IMG/VR virus record: IMGVR_UViG_3300042360_000358
Coordinates: 1-25,754 of that record
DNA: 25,754 bases
DNA from: a virus
Lineage: Duplodnaviria > Caudoviricetes
Strand: one strand, 5' to 3'
Position numbers and translations under genes: made by a program. A model generated the notes under the pieces. The model was not told where the DNA came from. It saw only the letters and a list, made by a program, of their open reading frames with translations, and did no database searches. Below, piece after piece: positions 7,486 through 20,500 of the stretch (positions within the stretch are counted from its first letter, which is position 1; each line of letters starts with the position of its first letter).

Positions 7486-7522
7486 TTATAATTGTTTGAG
7501 TTTTTTTTAATAGGGGACACAC

Positions 7523-7720
7523 ATGGACGGATTTTATTTAATTGCAATTTTGCTAATCACGATCATTATTTTGGCCGTGATTTTTTTTACTGATCGCGAA
7601 GACAAAAAAACTACGCTCAAAGGTGGCCCCGGCGAGGGCCCCGGCGGTCATCCGTTGAGCGGTCGTCAAAATAACATTACTCCCGGCGGCCCCGGCGAGG
7701 GCCCCGGAGGGCACCCTTGA
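7523..7720 (+). CDS. 65-aa membrane-anchored/secreted peptide with two GGPGEGPGGHP repeats
   Basis: RBS AGGGG; one hydrophobic helix (FYLIAILLITIIILAVIFF); two 11-aa repeats identical in protein with 5 synonymous codon differences, which supports real coding. Confidence 0.8.
   Translation: MDGFYLIAILLITIIILAVIFFTDREDKKTTLKGGPGEGPGGHPLSGRQNNITPGGPGEGPGGHP
7622..7717 (+). repeat. 33-bp imperfect direct repeat (7622-7654 and 7685-7717) encoding GGPGEGPGGHP
   Basis: ggtggccccggcgagggccccggcggtcatccg vs ggcggccccggcgagggccccggagggcaccct. Confidence 0.95.
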
Positions 7721-8112
7721 AAAGAGTCGCAGCCGCGCTTGCTATAGGCGCGGTTTTTTTTAATTTCTCGGCGGAATGGGCGCTGCCGGGATTCAGCCCG
7801 TACGCAACTTGGTACATCCAGCAGAGTATTTGGGTAGCCATTTTGTGTGTGGTGGTGCGTTTGCTCATTGACTCATACCCGCGATCCGCCGTGTGGGCGC
7901 TCGCGGCGACGGCGTGTTTTGTAGGCGCGTCTGAGGGGTTACAAAACGCGACATGCAGGCTGCTTGTCAACAATGGCAGCAGCATACCGCGTGGCACGAC
8001 CGTATGCGATTATGTGACTGGCCTACCCGTACAGGCCACGTCGGTCACGCTGTATTTATTTTTATTTTTGTGGAGCGTCTACAAATGCAGACCGACCCGC
8101 AGGATTTTATAA
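7717..8112 (+). CDS. Hypothetical integral membrane protein (about 4 TM)
   Basis: TTG start overlaps the peptide gene's TGA (TTGA); four hydrophobic stretches; loop with two Cys (ATCRLL...TVCD). Confidence 0.7.
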   Translation: MKRVAAALAIGAVFFNFSAEWALPGFSPYATWYIQQSIWVAILCVVVRLLIDSYPRSAVWALAATACFVGASEGLQNATCRLLVNNGSSIPRGTTVCDYVTGLPVQATSVTLYLFLFLWSVYKCRPTRRIL

Positions 8113-8471
8113 CCGTCGTCGTCGCCATATTGGCGCTGGTGACGAGTAAGGAACTGGCCGGGCTTGTCGGCCCATACGCCGGGATCGCGGCCTGCGCGTG
8201 TGCTGGCGCAGCCGTCTCTCTCTCCGGCAACGACGAGCCGATGACGGTGCCGCAGGCGCTTGGGTATGTGTTGCTGCGCGTCTTGCTCGCGACCATCCTC
8301 ACGGTAGGACTCGCTGAGCTATTGCAGCACGTCATACCGGCCATCAAACCGCGGTATTCGCTCATTCCTTTGGCGTTCGCCATTGGTTGGATTCGCGACT
8401 ACTCTAGCCTGCGTTCGTGGCTCGGCGACACCATACAAACCATAATCTCGCGCCGGGTGGATCGACCATGA
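8085..8471 (+). CDS. Membrane protein, holin/antiholin candidate (128 aa)
   Basis: ATG 8085 with GGAG RBS preferred over the track start 7953; 3-4 hydrophobic segments, basic C-terminus; lies in the lysis cassette. Confidence 0.6.
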   Translation: MQTDPQDFITVVVAILALVTSKELAGLVGPYAGIAACACAGAAVSLSGNDEPMTVPQALGYVLLRVLLATILTVGLAELLQHVIPAIKPRYSLIPLAFAIGWIRDYSSLRSWLGDTIQTIISRRVDRP

Positions 8472-8746
8472 CTCAGGAGCTGCTTACTGCAATCAATTTT
8501 TTTATATGCTCCCTCGGCGGATTTTGTTGTATTTGTCGGCTGCGGATTATGGGCGCGTCAACAAAAAAACCAATCCGATTTCAATACGCAATTTGGTTCG
8601 CGGTGTTTTTTTATTCCGCGTTTAGTTGGACGTATGGCGACCACCCAACCGGGATCCAGGTCGTGCTAGGCGCTGCTGTGCTCGCGCATATTTTGCTCGG
8701 CTTTAGCGCGTGGCGTGACGGCCTGCCAAAGTACGCAAAAAAATAG
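8468..8746 (+). CDS. Putative holin (3 TM, 92 aa)
   Basis: ATG 8468 overlaps the upstream stop (ATGA); three TM segments, basic tail WRDGLPKYAKK; immediately precedes the putative endolysin. Confidence 0.6.
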   Translation: MTQELLTAINFFICSLGGFCCICRLRIMGASTKKPIRFQYAIWFAVFFYSAFSWTYGDHPTGIQVVLGAAVLAHILLGFSAWRDGLPKYAKK

Positions 8747-8754
8747 GGGACGGA

Positions 8755-9213
8755 ATGGAATTAGAACTGAGACGCCGCCCGTCATCGGCGACCTGCGCCA
8801 TCGGAGAGTTGTTTGTAGACGGCAAATTCGAGTGCTACATACTAGAGGACGTGGTGCGAGAGATTGAGGGCGTTTCGGTCGCCGTTTGGAAAACGCACGG
8901 CGCGACGGCCATACCTGTAGGCACCTATCAAATCACCCTCACACAGTCCCCGCGTTTTAAGCGCGTTTTGCCATTGCTCAATCGCGTCCCCGGGTTTAGT
9001 GGCGTCCGAATCCACCCGGGCAACGATGCCGATGACACCGAGGGGTGTTTGCTGCCTGGCCTGACCGTTGACGACGACGGCGAGGGTGTCGCGTATTCTC
9101 GCGCCGCGTTTGATCGATTGTTTGACAAACTCGCGCGAGCGGACGCCATAGGTCAACCGATGTTTATCACAATCGAAAACAGTCACACGACCGACGACGA
9201 GGCTGTCGCGTGA
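8755..9213 (+). CDS. DUF5675 family protein, putative endolysin
   Basis: T/IGEL.VDGKFECY.LED...TAIP.GTY...LPLL..VPGFSGVRIHPGN...DTEGCLLPG motif; located between holin-like and spanin genes. Confidence 0.8.
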   Translation: MELELRRRPSSATCAIGELFVDGKFECYILEDVVREIEGVSVAVWKTHGATAIPVGTYQITLTQSPRFKRVLPLLNRVPGFSGVRIHPGNDADDTEGCLLPGLTVDDDGEGVAYSRAAFDRLFDKLARADAIGQPMFITIENSHTTDDEAVA

Positions 9214-9779
9214 TCTCCGCGATCCGCATGTGGCTCGATGTTGTGCTGCCGTTTTGGCGCATCGCTGCGGCATTGGCCACCGTCGCCGCGCTCGCTGGTG
9301 TGGTGTGGTGGGTGCGTGATACTGGAGTGCAGGCAGAGCGCGCCCGCTGGCAGATTAAAATGAGCAAATCCGACGCGCACTGGCAGGCTCAATTAGACGC
9401 GGCCAATGCGTCAAACCGCTCGAGCGAGCGGCGCAGCGCCCAAGCGATTGCAAACGTGTCAACCCGGTACCAACGCGAGATTAAAAATGTCGATGCGAAA
9501 AAAAATTATGATCGTAGTAGTGTGCGGCGCGGCAGCCTCCGGCTGTTCGACCGTCCCGATCACGCCACTAAACAAAACGATTGTCGAGCGGTGTCCGCAA
9601 CCAGTGACCCTACCGCCTCCACCCTCGGACGTGATGGTAGAGAGGCGACCGAACTTTCGCGAGCGACTACTGAAAATCTTTTTGACATCGTCAACGACGC
9701 CGATGCCGTCGTCGCACAACTTGCAGCCGCCCAGTCCGTAATTTTGGAATATCAAAAATTATGTGGCGCCGGCTTATGA
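9210..9779 (+). CDS. rz: Rz-like inner-membrane spanin
   Basis: N-terminal TM helix, coiled coil, VRRGSLRL and AELS...ADAVVAQL.A.Q..I motifs; follows the endolysin. Confidence 0.8.
   Translation: MISAIRMWLDVVLPFWRIAAALATVAALAGVVWWVRDTGVQAERARWQIKMSKSDAHWQAQLDAANASNRSSERRSAQAIANVSTRYQREIKNVDAKKNYDRSSVRRGSLRLFDRPDHATKQNDCRAVSATSDPTASTLGRDGREATELSRATTENLFDIVNDADAVVAQLAAAQSVILEYQKLCGAGL
9493..9741 (+). CDS. rz1: Rz1-like outer-membrane lipoprotein spanin, fully embedded in rz (+1 frame)
   Basis: MRKKIMIVVVCGAAASG-C lipoprotein signal and lipobox, Pro-rich mature part (CPQPVTLPPPPS); start could be ATG 9487 or 9493. Confidence 0.78.
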   Translation: MRKKIMIVVVCGAAASGCSTVPITPLNKTIVERCPQPVTLPPPPSDVMVERRPNFRERLLKIFLTSSTTPMPSSHNLQPPSP

Positions 9780-16858: not shown

Positions 16859-16900
16859 CCATTCCCGCGCTGCGGGACGCACACGCACACAGGAGGCATT

Positions 16901-17188
16901 ATGATCGATCCTAATTTTGACCCGGCTACAATCCCGCTTGGGCATACACGCGACGCCGCTGGCCGCTTGTTGAGCTACCGCGACGAGTCTGGATTTTGGT
17001 ATGCCTACACACACGACGACGCCGGCCGCGTAGTGAGGTGCATCAACAACCACGGTCATTGGTATGCCTACACTCGCGACGACGCCGGCCGCGTGTTGAC
17101 GTGGATCACCAGCACCGGCTGCCGAGAGTACTACATCTACGACGACGACGGCGACTACACAGTCACACGCACACAGGAGGCATTATGA
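16901..17188 (+). CDS. Small YD/RHS-repeat-like protein, paralog 1
   Basis: AGGAGG RBS; 21-aa repeats WYAYTxDDAGRV. Confidence 0.75.
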   Translation: MIDPNFDPATIPLGHTRDAAGRLLSYRDESGFWYAYTHDDAGRVVRCINNHGHWYAYTRDDAGRVLTWITSTGCREYYIYDDDGDYTVTRTQEAL

Positions 17189-17421
17189 TTGACCCTGATT
17201 TTGACCCGTCGACAATCCCGTTTGGGCGGACACGCGACCACAACGGCCGCTTGTTGAGCTACCGCGGCGGCTACTCTGGACGTTGGTATGCCTACACTCG
17301 CGACGATGCAGGCCGCGTGTTGACGTATCGCGACAGCAGCGGCTGCCGATCTGACTACACCTACGACGCCGACGGCAAATGCACAGTCACACGCACGCAG
17401 GAGGTGCCGTATGCCGCGTAG
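17185..17421 (+). CDS. Small YD/RHS-repeat-like protein, paralog 2 (one repeat shorter)
   Basis: ATG 17185 with the same RBS; MIDPDFDPSTIP...TVTRTQE aligns with paralog 1. Confidence 0.75.
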   Translation: MIDPDFDPSTIPFGRTRDHNGRLLSYRGGYSGRWYAYTRDDAGRVLTYRDSSGCRSDYTYDADGKCTVTRTQEVPYAA

Positions 17422-17815
17422 CGCGCCGCGCCCATGCGGGCATCCCGGATGCGGTGTGCTGGTGTCGGACGGCACGTCGCGCTGCCCAACTCATGCGCGG
17501 TCAGACATGCGCGAGGCTGATCGGCGGCGCGGCTCGGCTCACGCTCGCGGGTACACTGGCAAATGGTCTGCGGCCGCCAAGATGTTTTTGGCTCGCCACC
17601 CGCTTTGCATGTGCCCTGAGTGCGGCGCGGGGACGCTGAGAGTCACACAGGCAACTGTGGTAGATCACATCGTGCCCCATCGTGGAGATATGCGCCTATT
17701 CTGGGACACAAAAAATTGGCAGGCCATGGCCAAATCGTGCCACGACCGCAAAACGGCGCGGCATGATGGCGGGTTTGGCCGGGCTAGGACAACAAAACAA
17801 CAGGAGATAGTATGA
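17411..17815 (+). CDS. HNH endonuclease, terminase-associated (HK97 gp74-like)
   Basis: MP..A.RPC..PGC, RGY...W, HPLC, ATVVDHI.PHRGD..LFWD..NWQ...K.CH.RKT...DGGFG. Confidence 0.92.
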   Translation: MPRSAPRPCGHPGCGVLVSDGTSRCPTHARSDMREADRRRGSAHARGYTGKWSAAAKMFLARHPLCMCPECGAGTLRVTQATVVDHIVPHRGDMRLFWDTKNWQAMAKSCHDRKTARHDGGFGRARTTKQQEIV

Positions 17816-18621
17816 GCACAATCACAACCAAACAGCAGGCATCAATCGCGTCAAAACTGGCAACAATGCAACTGCCATCTGGATTAGGCAACAAGCAGTC
17901 GGCGTGCTCAATCGCGACCATAAATTTGGCGCTGTCAGGCAGGCTCACAGACGAGATCCCGGATTGTATGAGCGAGGTCATTGGTCGTTGGATTATTGTT
18001 GTCCAGGACGCGATGCCAGACGACGTGAGAAATTCGGCGCGATGGAAGTCCCTACTCCCGCTGGCGGCTGGCACCGGGCGGGATAGAGAGCAGGAGCGGC
18101 TCGACATCATTTTGGATTGGATGTGGGGCACCGTTTTGCCGTCGCTACAATCGATTGCAGATCAGCAGGGTTTTGGCGCCCAGTGGCAAAAAATGACTAC
18201 CGAGCGCACAGCCGCCTCGGCAAACGCAGTGGCGGAGGTGGCGGGGGTGGCGGCGGCGACGGTGGCGGCGTGGGCGGCGGCGACGGTGGCGGCGAGGGTG
18301 GCGGGGGCGGCGGCGAGGGGGGCGGCGACGTGGGCGGCGGGGAAGGCGGCAGAGGTGGTGGTGGCGGCGAGGGAGGCGGAGGCGTGGGCAAATTTTGACC
18401 AATGCGGGTTGCTGGAGCGGTTAATCAAAATTGACACCGCCCTGCGAGGAGCACAGCCAGCACCAGCACTTGTGCCGCTGACGGATGAGCAGCGGTCAAA
18501 AATGTACCGGACGGCAGTTTTAAGGGGCGACAGCATCATGATGCGGAGCGACTATGAGCTTGGCATAAGCGACGCAGAGGCCGCCCACGGCGTCGCGGAA
18601 GGCCAGCTGACGCATGACTAA
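17812..18621 (+). CDS. Hypothetical mosaic phage protein with Ala-rich repeat
   Basis: AGGAG RBS, ATGA overlap; Ala-rich tract about 18229-18387; C-terminal VPLTDEQ...EAAHG module. Confidence 0.75.
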   Translation: MSTITTKQQASIASKLATMQLPSGLGNKQSACSIATINLALSGRLTDEIPDCMSEVIGRWIIVVQDAMPDDVRNSARWKSLLPLAAGTGRDREQERLDIILDWMWGTVLPSLQSIADQQGFGAQWQKMTTERTAASANAVAEVAGVAAATVAAWAAATVAARVAGAAARGAATWAAGKAAEVVVAAREAEAWANFDQCGLLERLIKIDTALRGAQPAPALVPLTDEQRSKMYRTAVLRGDSIMMRSDYELGISDAEAAHGVAEGQLTHD

Positions 18622-19429
18622 ACACATTGTTTGTTACAGCGGGGGCCATGGCTCTGCACTGGCGGCGCTCGAAGTCGCCAAAAAGCATGGCGATTTGATT
18701 TTGCTAAATCACGACATGCACTATTCGGTCGAGGATGCCGACATCAAGCGATTTAAGCGCGAAATCGCCGATCACATCGGCGTCCCATTGACTTTTGCAA
18801 ACCGCCGAAATGCCCGGCAGGATCAATTTGACGTTTGTGTAGAGTCTAAGGCTTTTAAGGTCAAAAACGGCCAAGAGCTTTGCACTTCGCGTCTGAAGAC
18901 AGAGCCTTTCATGGCCTGGCTTGCTCAGAACGTTCCAGGCAAGGACGCGATCATTTACTACGGTTTTGATGCCAACGAACAGCACCGCATCCAGCGGCGC
19001 AGCGGGATCATGGGCTCACAGGGGTGGCGCACGGACTACCCGCTGATCTGGCCAGTCCGCACCATCTACAACACCGAAGAAATTGGCATACCACGGCCTA
19101 GCACATACGGAGTATTCAGGCATGGCAACTGCATCGGATGCCTGAAAGCTGGTTGGCAGCACTGGTACATCGTTTACTGCACGCGGCCTGACATCTGGGA
19201 GAAAGCAAAGTGGGCCGAAGAGGAAATTGGTCACGCCATACATCACGATAAATCCGGCCCCGTCTACATAGAGGATATGGAGCCAAAATTTGCAGCCATG
19301 AAAGCGGCGGGCGTACCGGCAACCGAGCACATTCCACATCAGCGCTTTTGGGCGAGCGCCAAAAAAGTCATCAAAATCAAACCGCAGATGGAAATCCATA
19401 TGCCATGCGAATGCACGGAGGCAGTATGA
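18614..19429 (+). CDS. PAPS-reductase-like adenine nucleotide alpha-hydrolase family protein
   Basis: PP-loop YSGGHGS, CTSRLK, YGFDANE..R, YPL, HGNCIGCLK and terminal CEC motifs. Confidence 0.8.
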   Translation: MTKHIVCYSGGHGSALAALEVAKKHGDLILLNHDMHYSVEDADIKRFKREIADHIGVPLTFANRRNARQDQFDVCVESKAFKVKNGQELCTSRLKTEPFMAWLAQNVPGKDAIIYYGFDANEQHRIQRRSGIMGSQGWRTDYPLIWPVRTIYNTEEIGIPRPSTYGVFRHGNCIGCLKAGWQHWYIVYCTRPDIWEKAKWAEEEIGHAIHHDKSGPVYIEDMEPKFAAMKAAGVPATEHIPHQRFWASAKKVIKIKPQMEIHMPCECTEAV

Positions 19430-19722
19430 GCACAATCACAATTGCGCGAGCAACGCTGGAGCTGGCGCTGGAGGCGTTGGAGGGCAACACAACAAATCCG
19501 GTCATTGACCCCGAACAGGCTGCGATTGAGGACCAGGCCATTGCCGTCATCAAGCAGGCCCTTGAACAGCCAGTGCAGGAGCCCACATTTTGGTTAAACG
19601 AGCACGGGCAACTCGCCGCATCGCGGAGATGGGCTGAGCGCACTTGGCGCGGACAGAAGCTGATACCCCTCTACACCACCCCACCAGCACCAGCACCTGT
19701 GCCGCTTGGGAGCAAGCAATGA
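19426..19722 (+). CDS. Hypothetical mosaic phage protein
   Basis: ATG 19426 (GGAGG RBS, ATGA overlap); LELALEALE...QALEQPVQEP...PLYT.PPAP modules. Confidence 0.7.
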   Translation: MSTITIARATLELALEALEGNTTNPVIDPEQAAIEDQAIAVIKQALEQPVQEPTFWLNEHGQLAASRRWAERTWRGQKLIPLYTTPPAPAPVPLGSKQ

Positions 19723-19934
19723 TTGATGCAGAGCTAGTGCATTTTGGCCCAGTTTGGGGCAGACCAGTATCCCGGTCGATGGCTCTTTGCATGGCGGACA
19801 AAGACCCAGGGCTAGAGTCGCGCACGATGACTAGATCGGCTACTACTGTCACCTGCCCGGCATGCCTGCACCTGATGACGGACACCCGAGCCATCGAAGC
19901 CGCCCACGGCATCACGAAAGGCGGTGCGGCATGA
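19719..19934 (+). CDS. Small Cys-containing hypothetical protein
   Basis: ATGA overlaps at both ends; H...C...VTCPAC possible zinc site; ends RAIEAAHGITKG. Confidence 0.55.
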   Translation: MIDAELVHFGPVWGRPVSRSMALCMADKDPGLESRTMTRSATTVTCPACLHLMTDTRAIEAAHGITKGGAA

Positions 19935-20500
19935 AGGAGCGTCCAATCATTTTCAGCGCCCCGATGGTGCGGGCCTTGCTGGAGGGCAGCAAAACCCAGA
20001 CGAGGCGGGTGGTGAAGCCCCAGCCTTCTTTAGAACAAGAATTCAGCGGCCGTGTGCTTTGCCCCTACGGCCAACCCGGCGACCGGCTGTGGGTGCGCGA
20101 GGCGTTCAGCGGCCCGCACCATCAGGATCGCCACCCGCCGCGAGACTGGCACAGCACGGACGAGATCCACTATTGGGCTGACGGCCGCCCAAACTGCGGC
20201 GACTGGACAAAGCCGCGCCCCGGCATGTTCATGCCCCGCTGGGCCAGCCGCATCACGCTGAAAATCACCGGCGTGCGCGTGGAGCGACTACAGGATATAA
20301 CCGAAGACGATGCGCGGGCAGAGGGGATCACAGATGGCGGGTGTCTGAATTGTGGGGAATCTGAAGCCAACTGCGGCTGCCTCAACCCGCAGCCTGACGC
20401 CCGCGACTCGTTTATTTACCTCTGGGAGTCCATCAATGGCCCAGGATCATGGGCAGCCAACCCGTGGGTTTGGGTGGTCGAGGTCGAGCGCGTGGGATAG
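19931..20500 (+). CDS. ASCH/PUA-like phage protein
   Basis: MKERPIIFSAPMVRALL.G.KTQTRR, CPYGQPGDRLWVRE, MPRWASRI.L.IT.VRVERLQDI...DA.AEG, W..NPWVWV motifs. Confidence 0.85.
   Translation: MKERPIIFSAPMVRALLEGSKTQTRRVVKPQPSLEQEFSGRVLCPYGQPGDRLWVREAFSGPHHQDRHPPRDWHSTDEIHYWADGRPNCGDWTKPRPGMFMPRWASRITLKITGVRVERLQDITEDDARAEGITDGGCLNCGESEANCGCLNPQPDARDSFIYLWESINGPGSWAANPWVWVVEVERVG

Follow-up and report, generated by a model that had tools for sequence, protein, structure and literature searches.

A short C-terminal tag and a four-helix membrane protein are encoded as a conserved gene pair beside phage lysis genes

The locus

The window, by which is meant the whole 25,754-nucleotide stretch of DNA that was analysed, is part of a tailed phage and carries an HK97-like portal and terminase along with tail genes. 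The tail-fibre gene is followed, in this order, by a 65-aa ORF, a 131-aa ORF, two genes for membrane proteins, a DUF5675 gene and genes for Rz/Rz1-like spanins. The product of the 131-aa ORF has four predicted transmembrane helices (4-TM), and that of the 65-aa ORF carries a short repeated core that includes the tag discussed below. The features are as follows.

7487..7492, plus strand: TATAAT in the AT-rich gap 3' of the tail-fibre gene; possible -10 element with no -35 partner; the same in six close loci
7512..7517, plus strand: AGGGGA ribosome-binding site, read from the sequence, 5 nt before the ATG of the 65-aa ORF
7523..7720, plus strand: 65-aa tag carrier; N-terminal membrane helix at about residues 4-22, predicted N-out/C-in, then two tag-bearing repeats
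7622..7654, plus strand: core copy 1, GGPGEGPGGHP (tag GGPGEG)
7685..7717, plus strand: core copy 2, running to the stop; the stop overlaps the 4-TM start (TTGA)
7717..8112, plus strand: 131-aa 4-TM protein of an unannotated phage family; C80-C97 likely disulfide; conserved Y33, E73, Q76, R81, D98, G102 and P104
7731..7763, plus strand: terminator-like hairpin (11 pairs) and T run within the 4-TM start; clade-specific
8085..8471, plus strand: 128-aa membrane protein, holin-like by position; 28-nt overlap with the 4-TM end
8468..8746, plus strand: 92-aa membrane protein, holin-like by position
8755..9213, plus strand: DUF5675 protein in the endolysin slot (DUF5675 match, E 4e-31)
9210..9779, plus strand: Rz-like inner-membrane spanin (family matches)
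9487..9741, plus strand: Rz1-like lipoprotein spanin, embedded (phrog_3198, E 0.0014)

A sequence-only reading of this DNA had placed a membrane-anchored repeat peptide, coupled to a 4-TM protein, at the head of the lysis cassette. Its account of the two genes is correct. The 65-aa ORF has one hydrophobic helix (KD19 maximum 3.2) and two copies of GGPGEGPGGHP, the second ending at the stop; the copies differ at exactly the five codons that had been listed, all of them synonymously; and the stop overlaps the start of the 131-aa ORF in a TTGA at 7717-7720. The TATAAT at 7487-7492, to which that reading also drew attention, is present, but it lacks a -35 partner and a sigma-70 scan of the window called no promoter on the plus strand, so that it is a candidate -10 element only and not a demonstrated promoter. 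The hairpin and T run at 7731-7763 had been overlooked. This hairpin is kept in six close loci and absent from ten distant ones, and as the terminator scan found one such structure against 1.7 expected in shuffled sequences, which is not above chance, it may be fortuitous.

Among the lysis genes that had been seen downstream, the Rz- and Rz1-like spanins are supported by family matches, whereas the 128-aa and 92-aa proteins are called holin-like solely for their position and hydrophobicity, and the DUF5675 protein is a putative endolysin by its position only. Neither holin-like protein has a match in Pfam, PHROG or the isolate phage collection. RNA data from one run gave a single contig over 8493-8654 only, a small share, and nothing covering the tag/4-TM pair.

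Between 7402 and 10231 the window matches a complete 36.8-kb phage at 92-95%, the head modules of the two being different; the pair thus travels with the lysis cassette. Comparison of the window with genome G001 (L145, L146) shows a mosaic, in which the early and lysis regions are 90-95% alike and the head and tail modules differ, with no integrase of the families tested. Tyrosine integrase (PF00589) is missing from all five related records, two of which are at least 90% complete, which leaves a role in the choice between lysis and lysogeny without support from this search. A host search by portal gave best matches below 42%, and no host was assigned.

The repeat in close relatives

A search of IMG/VR found nine close loci, six of which had upstream DNA and were used. 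The 65-aa ORF is present in all six, and its repeat expands and contracts among them, with two core copies in four loci and three in the other two. Across the 16 core copies of the window and these loci, one of which (L001) is almost identical to the window, there are ten DNA variants, and all ten variable sites lie at third codon positions. Internal copies are conserved as strictly as the terminal copy. The 65-aa ORF is a real gene under selection at the protein level. The preservation of the 11-mer, proposed earlier from the two copies in the window, holds in this respect, with two corrections. The copy number varies between two and three, and two of seven database relatives depart from the core: P0007 has one P to H change, and in P0011 one copy has diverged and the tail is of another kind, the remaining five keeping all cores intact.

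The cores are separated by 3 or 10 residues and preceded by K, R or P, a variation that leaves no fixed cleavage site. The exact core was found at six viral loci, all of the window's clade, to which the repeat and the 11-mer are peculiar. It also occurs at five loci in metagenome collections and 47 in genome collections, but no small anchored ORF and no relative of the 4-TM protein accompanies it there; a metagenome scan with the close alignment gave 583 candidates, none of which was confirmed, and ESM Atlas scores for the 65-aa ORF were all below 0.85.

A further set of small viral ORFs (L036, L049, L051, L074, L089, L093, L095, L096, L101 and others) has no adjoining 4-TM gene. ORFs of this L036 type are laid out as a hydrophobic helix, a basic patch, a run of Asp, GGPGEGP and an aromatic tail, and fit the tag pattern, probably by convergence. 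They have no match in the isolate phage collection, and the gene after them is, in most, what we take to be a T4-type tail gene.

An unannotated family of four-helix membrane proteins

A profile search of 1.84 billion representatives with the 4-TM protein gave 74 clusters at an E value of 0.001 or better; 3 long multi-stretch matches and short fragments were removed before alignment, leaving 66 rows. No Pfam or PHROG family was matched by more than one of these 66 members at E 0.01, holin and antiholin models included. By these profiles, the 4-TM family founded on the 131-aa protein has no annotation. Five 4-TM queries of the isolate phage collection gave no match apart from one at E 9, and the profile had no match in 401 bacterial genomes of one order, in a search without positive control (G032 was possibly among the 401).

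In agreement with the earlier description, AF2 predicts four long helices for the 131-aa protein, at residues 2-16, 28-51, 58-82 and 105-123 (pLDDT 94). Conserved among 72 sequences are E73 (68), C80 (68), C97 (67), D98 (64), G102 (69) and P104 (64), and further Y33 (62), R81 (55), H16 (53), R15 (51), E40 (49) and Q76 (48); the window protein departs from the family at F15, N16 and Val at position 40. Both C80 and C97 are present in 67 of these sequences, neither in four and one only in a single sequence. Loss of the cysteines as a pair fits a structural disulfide, and on the same ground a catalytic cysteine was ruled out.

Flanks of membrane helices that are rich in K/R face the cytoplasm, according to the positive-inside rule. 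Family means are 0.9 K/R in the four N-terminal residues, 0.7 in loop 1, 1.9 in loop 2 and 2.5 in the C-terminus, while the 23 residues of loop 3 have 1.9 K/R offset by 2.0 D/E. The predicted topology is N-in/C-in, with a disulfide loop and a polar pocket (E-x-x-Q/R/D) predicted to be periplasmic. Foldseek searches of PDB and BFVD gave no match at E 0.001, and the best VIA fold match (Z 7.8, rmsd 4.0, 111 aligned) lies within the helical-bundle background. A complex prediction of the 4-TM protein with residues 30-65 of the 65-aa ORF scored 0.00, and as its controls were not folded it is evidence neither way.

A two-helix membrane segment follows the 4-TM protein in several members (L204, L207, L210, L211, L213; P0029, P0035, P0045, P0059, P0066, P0070), fused to it in some and encoded by a separate overlapping ORF in others. 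P0019 was rejected as a true fusion, its extension looking like an out-of-frame reading of an upstream ORF.

A tag upstream of distant 4-TM genes

Distant loci were collected with three DNA patterns drawn solely from 4-TM motifs, so that the DNA upstream played no part in the choice. In IMG/VR these gave 57 loci, of which 35 encode a family member. L252 and L254, which have no upstream DNA, were left out of the tag count, and the remaining family loci fall into 20 clusters at 90% identity and 11 at 50%. Two loci of genome G032 were left out when the motif was compared with control loci. The count was made on the 20 cluster representatives together with L240, amounting to 21 loci and 820 ORF ends.

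In 20 of these 21 loci, one ORF and no more ends in a tag of the GG-[PHQS]-G-[ED] type. The expression was fitted after the tags had been inspected, and it finds none in 22 viral control loci without a 4-TM gene and none in 51 bacterial controls; the looser motif GGxG[EDP] is found in 18 of 21 loci, against 0 of 22 viral and 1 of 51 bacterial controls. The tag takes forms such as GGPGEE, GGHGEE, GGQGEE, GGHGDP and GGPGPK, with 0-7 residues from there to the end, and 8 of 20 have H, Q or S in place of the Pro. A tagged locus occurs in every one of the 11 clusters at 50% identity. In the distant loci the tag codons vary at third positions, and the tag is retained across 4-TM proteins that are only 25-45% identical. 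Tagged ends are rare within a genome, at one of 373 ORF ends in the window and two of 1007 in two related genomes. The exception is the cluster of L239 and L242, where the 4-TM gene is intact and the locus has no tag; in that cluster, then, the tag is not indispensable.

In 18 of the 20 loci the tag ORF runs into the 4-TM start or stops just short of it, its stop lying within about 30 nt. In the other two the tag is intact but uncoupled, 280 nt upstream in L204 and 590 nt upstream in L240, in each case behind another ORF, which suits action in trans. A Shine-Dalgarno or hairpin reading of the tag was ruled out by its variable spacing to the start and its free third positions. The small tag ORF and the 4-TM gene are a conserved pair beside lysis genes. 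As a side observation, an HNH-AP2 endonuclease gene sits exactly between the two in L240 (689-1318, minus strand).

The carriers of the tag are unrelated. They are 28-86 residues long and, by eye, membrane-anchored, amphipathic, coiled-coil-like, beta-rich or Pro-rich; 16 of 21 have no hydrophobic helix. The five anchored ones, that of the window included, have no K/R before the helix and 2-4 after it (by charge count), which by the positive-inside rule predicts a cytoplasmic tag. Conservation is limited to the six-residue tag and does not extend to the 11-mer, its repetition or the membrane anchor.

These results alter the sequence-only reading. Had homologues of the 4-TM gene lacked an upstream peptide ORF, the pairing would have fallen, and in 20 of 21 loci they do not lack one; of the core, only the six-residue tag is conserved. 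The layout of a processed precursor, on the other hand, finds no support: most carriers have no helix, the residue before the core varies and the tag is predicted to be cytoplasmic, the last being an outcome that the sequence-only reading had itself named as a refutation. Similarly, an exported signal of the arbitrium kind is unlikely, as the anchored carriers are predicted to be C-in and most carriers have no export signal.

Co-variation of peptide and partner had been proposed as a check, and a natural cross bears on it. One carrier is shared by L234 and L246 (75%) and another by L243 and L240 (86%), while the 4-TM proteins are 82% identical between L234 and L243, 95% between L246 and L240 and 65-67% between the types. 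In these four loci the tag variant follows the 4-TM type and not the carrier, as co-variation would have it, although linkage alone could also explain this. No regulator or protease gene was seen to travel with the pair in the loci.

Lysis genes around the pair in distant phages

Thirteen candidate neighbour ORFs, picked by eye, were examined for endolysin families, 8 of the 21 representatives being outside this test. Seven of the 13 match named endolysin families of four types (GH108; GH19, three; M15, two, one of them weak; phage lysozyme), three match DUF5675 and three an unnamed PHROG. The order of genes varies between loci, and the tag stays with the 4-TM gene and not with the holin. Homologues of both holin-like genes of the window are visible in L205 and L218, which were outside the endolysin test.

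Several of these neighbours are of interest in themselves. The two holin-like genes (8085-8746 in the window; L205, L218 and L203) are a conserved unannotated pair of their own in distant phages. DUF5675 fills the endolysin slot in the window, L204, L210 and L213, and phrog_3108, of unknown function, does so in L234, L240 and L243, where it is a candidate endolysin family.

How the pair might act

The pair appears to be undescribed, in that no family model, isolate phage or paper covers it; in the literature searched, parts of which were accessible only in extract, no description of it was found, and 'GGPGEE' occurred in one unrelated plant paper. The candidate mechanisms all have distant precedents, and the novelty lies in a wholly unannotated membrane family and an unusual portable tag. 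The pair is not assigned to the lipocones, arrest peptides, holin/antiholin pairs or arbitrium, each of which it recalls in part.

The reading tentatively preferred, as a possibility short of a probable one, is that of a portable accessory lysis module in which a cytoplasmic tag would bind the 4-TM protein and regulate it in trans. The tag on the upstream product, predicted to face the cytoplasm, would serve as a partner motif for the 4-TM protein and hold it off or on, much as an antiholin does; in the window's clade, the two or three copies would add avidity and the membrane anchor would serve as a tether. The 4-TM protein would act on the cell envelope during lysis, perhaps using its pocket, in the manner of VanZ-like proteins, on lipid carriers or the head groups of outer-leaflet lipids. 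Of this, the pairing, the carrier-independent tag, the protein-level selection and the lysis neighbourhood are demonstrated, and the partner-motif model is preferred because uncoupled tags are intact, internal copies are fully conserved and tag variants track the 4-TM types. Several points weigh against it: prediction puts the conserved pocket in the periplasm, opposite the tag, and the cytoplasmic face is only modestly conserved; a six-residue, mostly Gly motif on soluble carriers would a priori be a weak binder; tight linkage can suffice to explain the tags, 18 of 20 being within about 30 nt of the 4-TM start; the L239/L242 cluster is tagless; and unrelated carriers with one short C-terminal motif are, in the part of the source available, a documented layout of arrest peptides (PMC10987492).

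Holin/antiholin pairs include lambda S105/S107 and T4 T with RI and RIII, and T4 uses disulfide-bonded periplasmic domains. Like them, the pair consists of small coupled lysis-cassette genes, for a membrane protein and a small partner. Unlike them, it has no sequence or family match to such proteins, the partner is a six-residue tag on interchangeable carriers, and separate holin-like genes adjoin the pair.

The main rival, itself rather doubtful, is a nascent peptide acting in cis: the tag would pause or destabilise the ribosome a few codons ahead of the stop and so meter how much of the coupled 4-TM gene is translated. In the window this would extend to the overlapping genes that follow, and the hairpin at 7731-7763 might serve as an attenuator. 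Such a role would not require the peptide to cross a membrane, and it accords with the 0-7 residues after the tag, with the 18 of 20 stops within about 30 nt of the start and with one tagged ORF per genome (one of 373 ORF ends in the window, two of 1007 in two related genomes). In the accessible part of PMC10987492, only a short C-terminal motif is common to the unrelated N-termini of RQH-family arrest peptides, and in these Sec/YidC arrest peptides (RQH/RAPP-like), as in the phage pair, a short G/P motif follows arbitrary carriers and precedes a membrane-protein gene. However, measured against what that part describes, the phage motif GG-x-G-[ED] is not RAPP or RAGP, has no conserved Arg and has H, Q or S at its Pro position in 8 of 20; most phage carriers have no localisation signal and the target is a phage gene; and the phage pair has tandem internal copies, and a stop/start overlap in place of a structured spacer. 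Two of the 20 tags are uncoupled yet intact, the internal copies, 21 or 42 codons before the stop, are fully conserved, and the hairpin is clade-specific and not above chance.

A second alternative, quite improbable, is that tagged peptides are released through lysis or holin lesions and that the 4-TM protein senses them with its periplasmic pocket, either in the cell of origin or in infected neighbours, altering the timing of lysis. The disulfide-capped polar pocket predicted on the periplasmic side, the tag variants that track 4-TM subfamilies and the several core copies, spaced by 3 and 10 residues, are in keeping with this. It is opposed by the 16 of 21 carriers without an export signal, by the predicted C-in orientation of the anchored ones and by a cleavage site and a C-terminal residue that are not fixed; nor is there an accompanying regulator or protease gene, or a tyrosine integrase in the five related records. 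In arbitrium, a secreted pro-peptide with a signal peptide, AimP, is encoded beside its soluble TPR receptor, AimR, in a temperate element. Here too a small peptide gene adjoins a candidate partner in a phage. In contrast to arbitrium, however, the phage carriers have no signal peptide, the adjacent gene encodes a 4-TM protein and no soluble TPR receptor was seen in the loci, there is no fixed mature C-terminal peptide and no sign of a temperate cycle (PF00589 in 0 of 5 records), and the host, judged from the spanins, is diderm. A lasso precursor was also ruled out, no cyclase genes being seen and the ring being short for a lasso peptide.

Sorting tags with dedicated membrane enzymes, such as GlyGly-CTERM with rhombosortase and PEP-CTERM with exosortase, suggest a third alternative, in which the 4-TM protein would be a lipocone-like enzyme and the tag its acceptor or substrate, for lipidation or cleavage; we give this very little credence. 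As in those systems, a short tag occurs on unrelated proteins and is linked to a membrane-protein gene. Here, however, no membrane helix follows the tag, there is no export signal and only one tagged ORF per genome, and the 4-TM cysteines, being lost as a pair, are not catalytic. The tag has no invariant nucleophile, and tag and pocket are predicted on opposite sides of the membrane.

The case for a lipocone rests on likeness to the VanZ-Skillet clade. In the available part of PMC12419801, the defining features of VanZ-1/Skillet are an ExxQ in helix 3, acidic residues in helix 4 and a polar one in helix 2, and the proposed role of Skillet-1 is lipidation of a motif carried by the product of a neighbouring gene; the source data of that paper may list families or phage contexts bearing on the 4-TM family. 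Alike, as far as that part goes, are the four-helix membrane core (cone geometry aside), the ExxQ in helix 3 (E 68/72, Q 48/72), roughly, an Asp near helix 4 (D98, 64/72), short helices in the outer loops and a pocket predicted at the outer leaflet. By the same comparison the 4-TM family has no His, Asn or Asp at the helix-2 site, its conserved helix-2 residues being Y33 and E40; its His is at the end of helix 1 (position 16; Asn in the window); its Glu-to-Asp spacing is 25, against 15-19 in VanZ/YfiM; and it has a disulfide loop. D98 lies on a short helix of its own, with G-x-P between it and helix 4, and an HMM alignment to VanZ leaves the acids out of register.

Profile comparisons are no firmer. 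One of 66 4-TM members matches VanZ, at E 0.002. In a lipocone profile test, from which the two G032 loci were left out, hhalign gave 0.8% for VanZ, 2.7% for DUF2809 and 0.4% for the DoxX control, and the best HMM bits were 11.9, 7.4 and 3.4; as the VanZ-DUF2809 positive control failed too, the test had little power. ESM Atlas pointed weakly to DUF2809 (Skillet lipocone) as its top match, at 0.88, a score that below 0.9 is a lead only. Kinship of the 4-TM protein with VanZ and the lipocones is accordingly treated as a lead. If it is real, YfiM shows how such a protein could serve lysis, since this lipocone, in the portion of the report available, cleaves lipid-linked oligosaccharides and causes osmotic lysis on overexpression (10.64898/2026.09.16.752124).

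Finally, that there is no functional link at all, the 4-TM gene being nothing more than an accessory gene of holin-like kind and the tag either a low-complexity tail that hitchhikes or a signal in the RNA read through the codons, is suggested by the tagless L239/L242, by the low information of Gly/Pro tails and by similar tails on unrelated small ORFs without an adjoining 4-TM gene, but is highly improbable given the free third positions, the retention of the tag across 4-TM proteins 25-45% identical and a spacing to the start too variable for a simple Shine-Dalgarno role.

Whatever the mechanism, a tag that is conserved independently of its carrier, near at least four types of endolysin, is an undescribed part of the lysis cassette. 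It could mean a new pair of lysis regulators, a nascent-peptide control element of phages, or a lipid-carrier enzyme with a peptide switch. It is unlikely that the tag, as a portable element grafted onto any upstream gene, is the ligand of a phage-specific 4-TM receptor or lipid-carrier enzyme that sets lysis behaviour; were tagged peptides freed by lysis to reach the periplasmic pocket in other infected cells, this would be a peptide lysis signal in phages of diderm hosts, unrelated to arbitrium or to T4 lysis inhibition. The pair is small enough for cloning, and the natural variants of tag and 4-TM protein offer specificity swaps.

Other regions of the window

Before the terminase, at 17411-20500, the window has an HNH gene, an Ala-rich 269-aa ORF, a PAPS-reductase-family gene and a phrog_874 gene, and parts of this region match related genomes in inverted orientation. 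At 16877-17404 there are tandem paralogous small ORFs with repeated Y-T-x-D-x-x-G-R units, presumably YD-repeat-like, of which two related genomes also have several copies.
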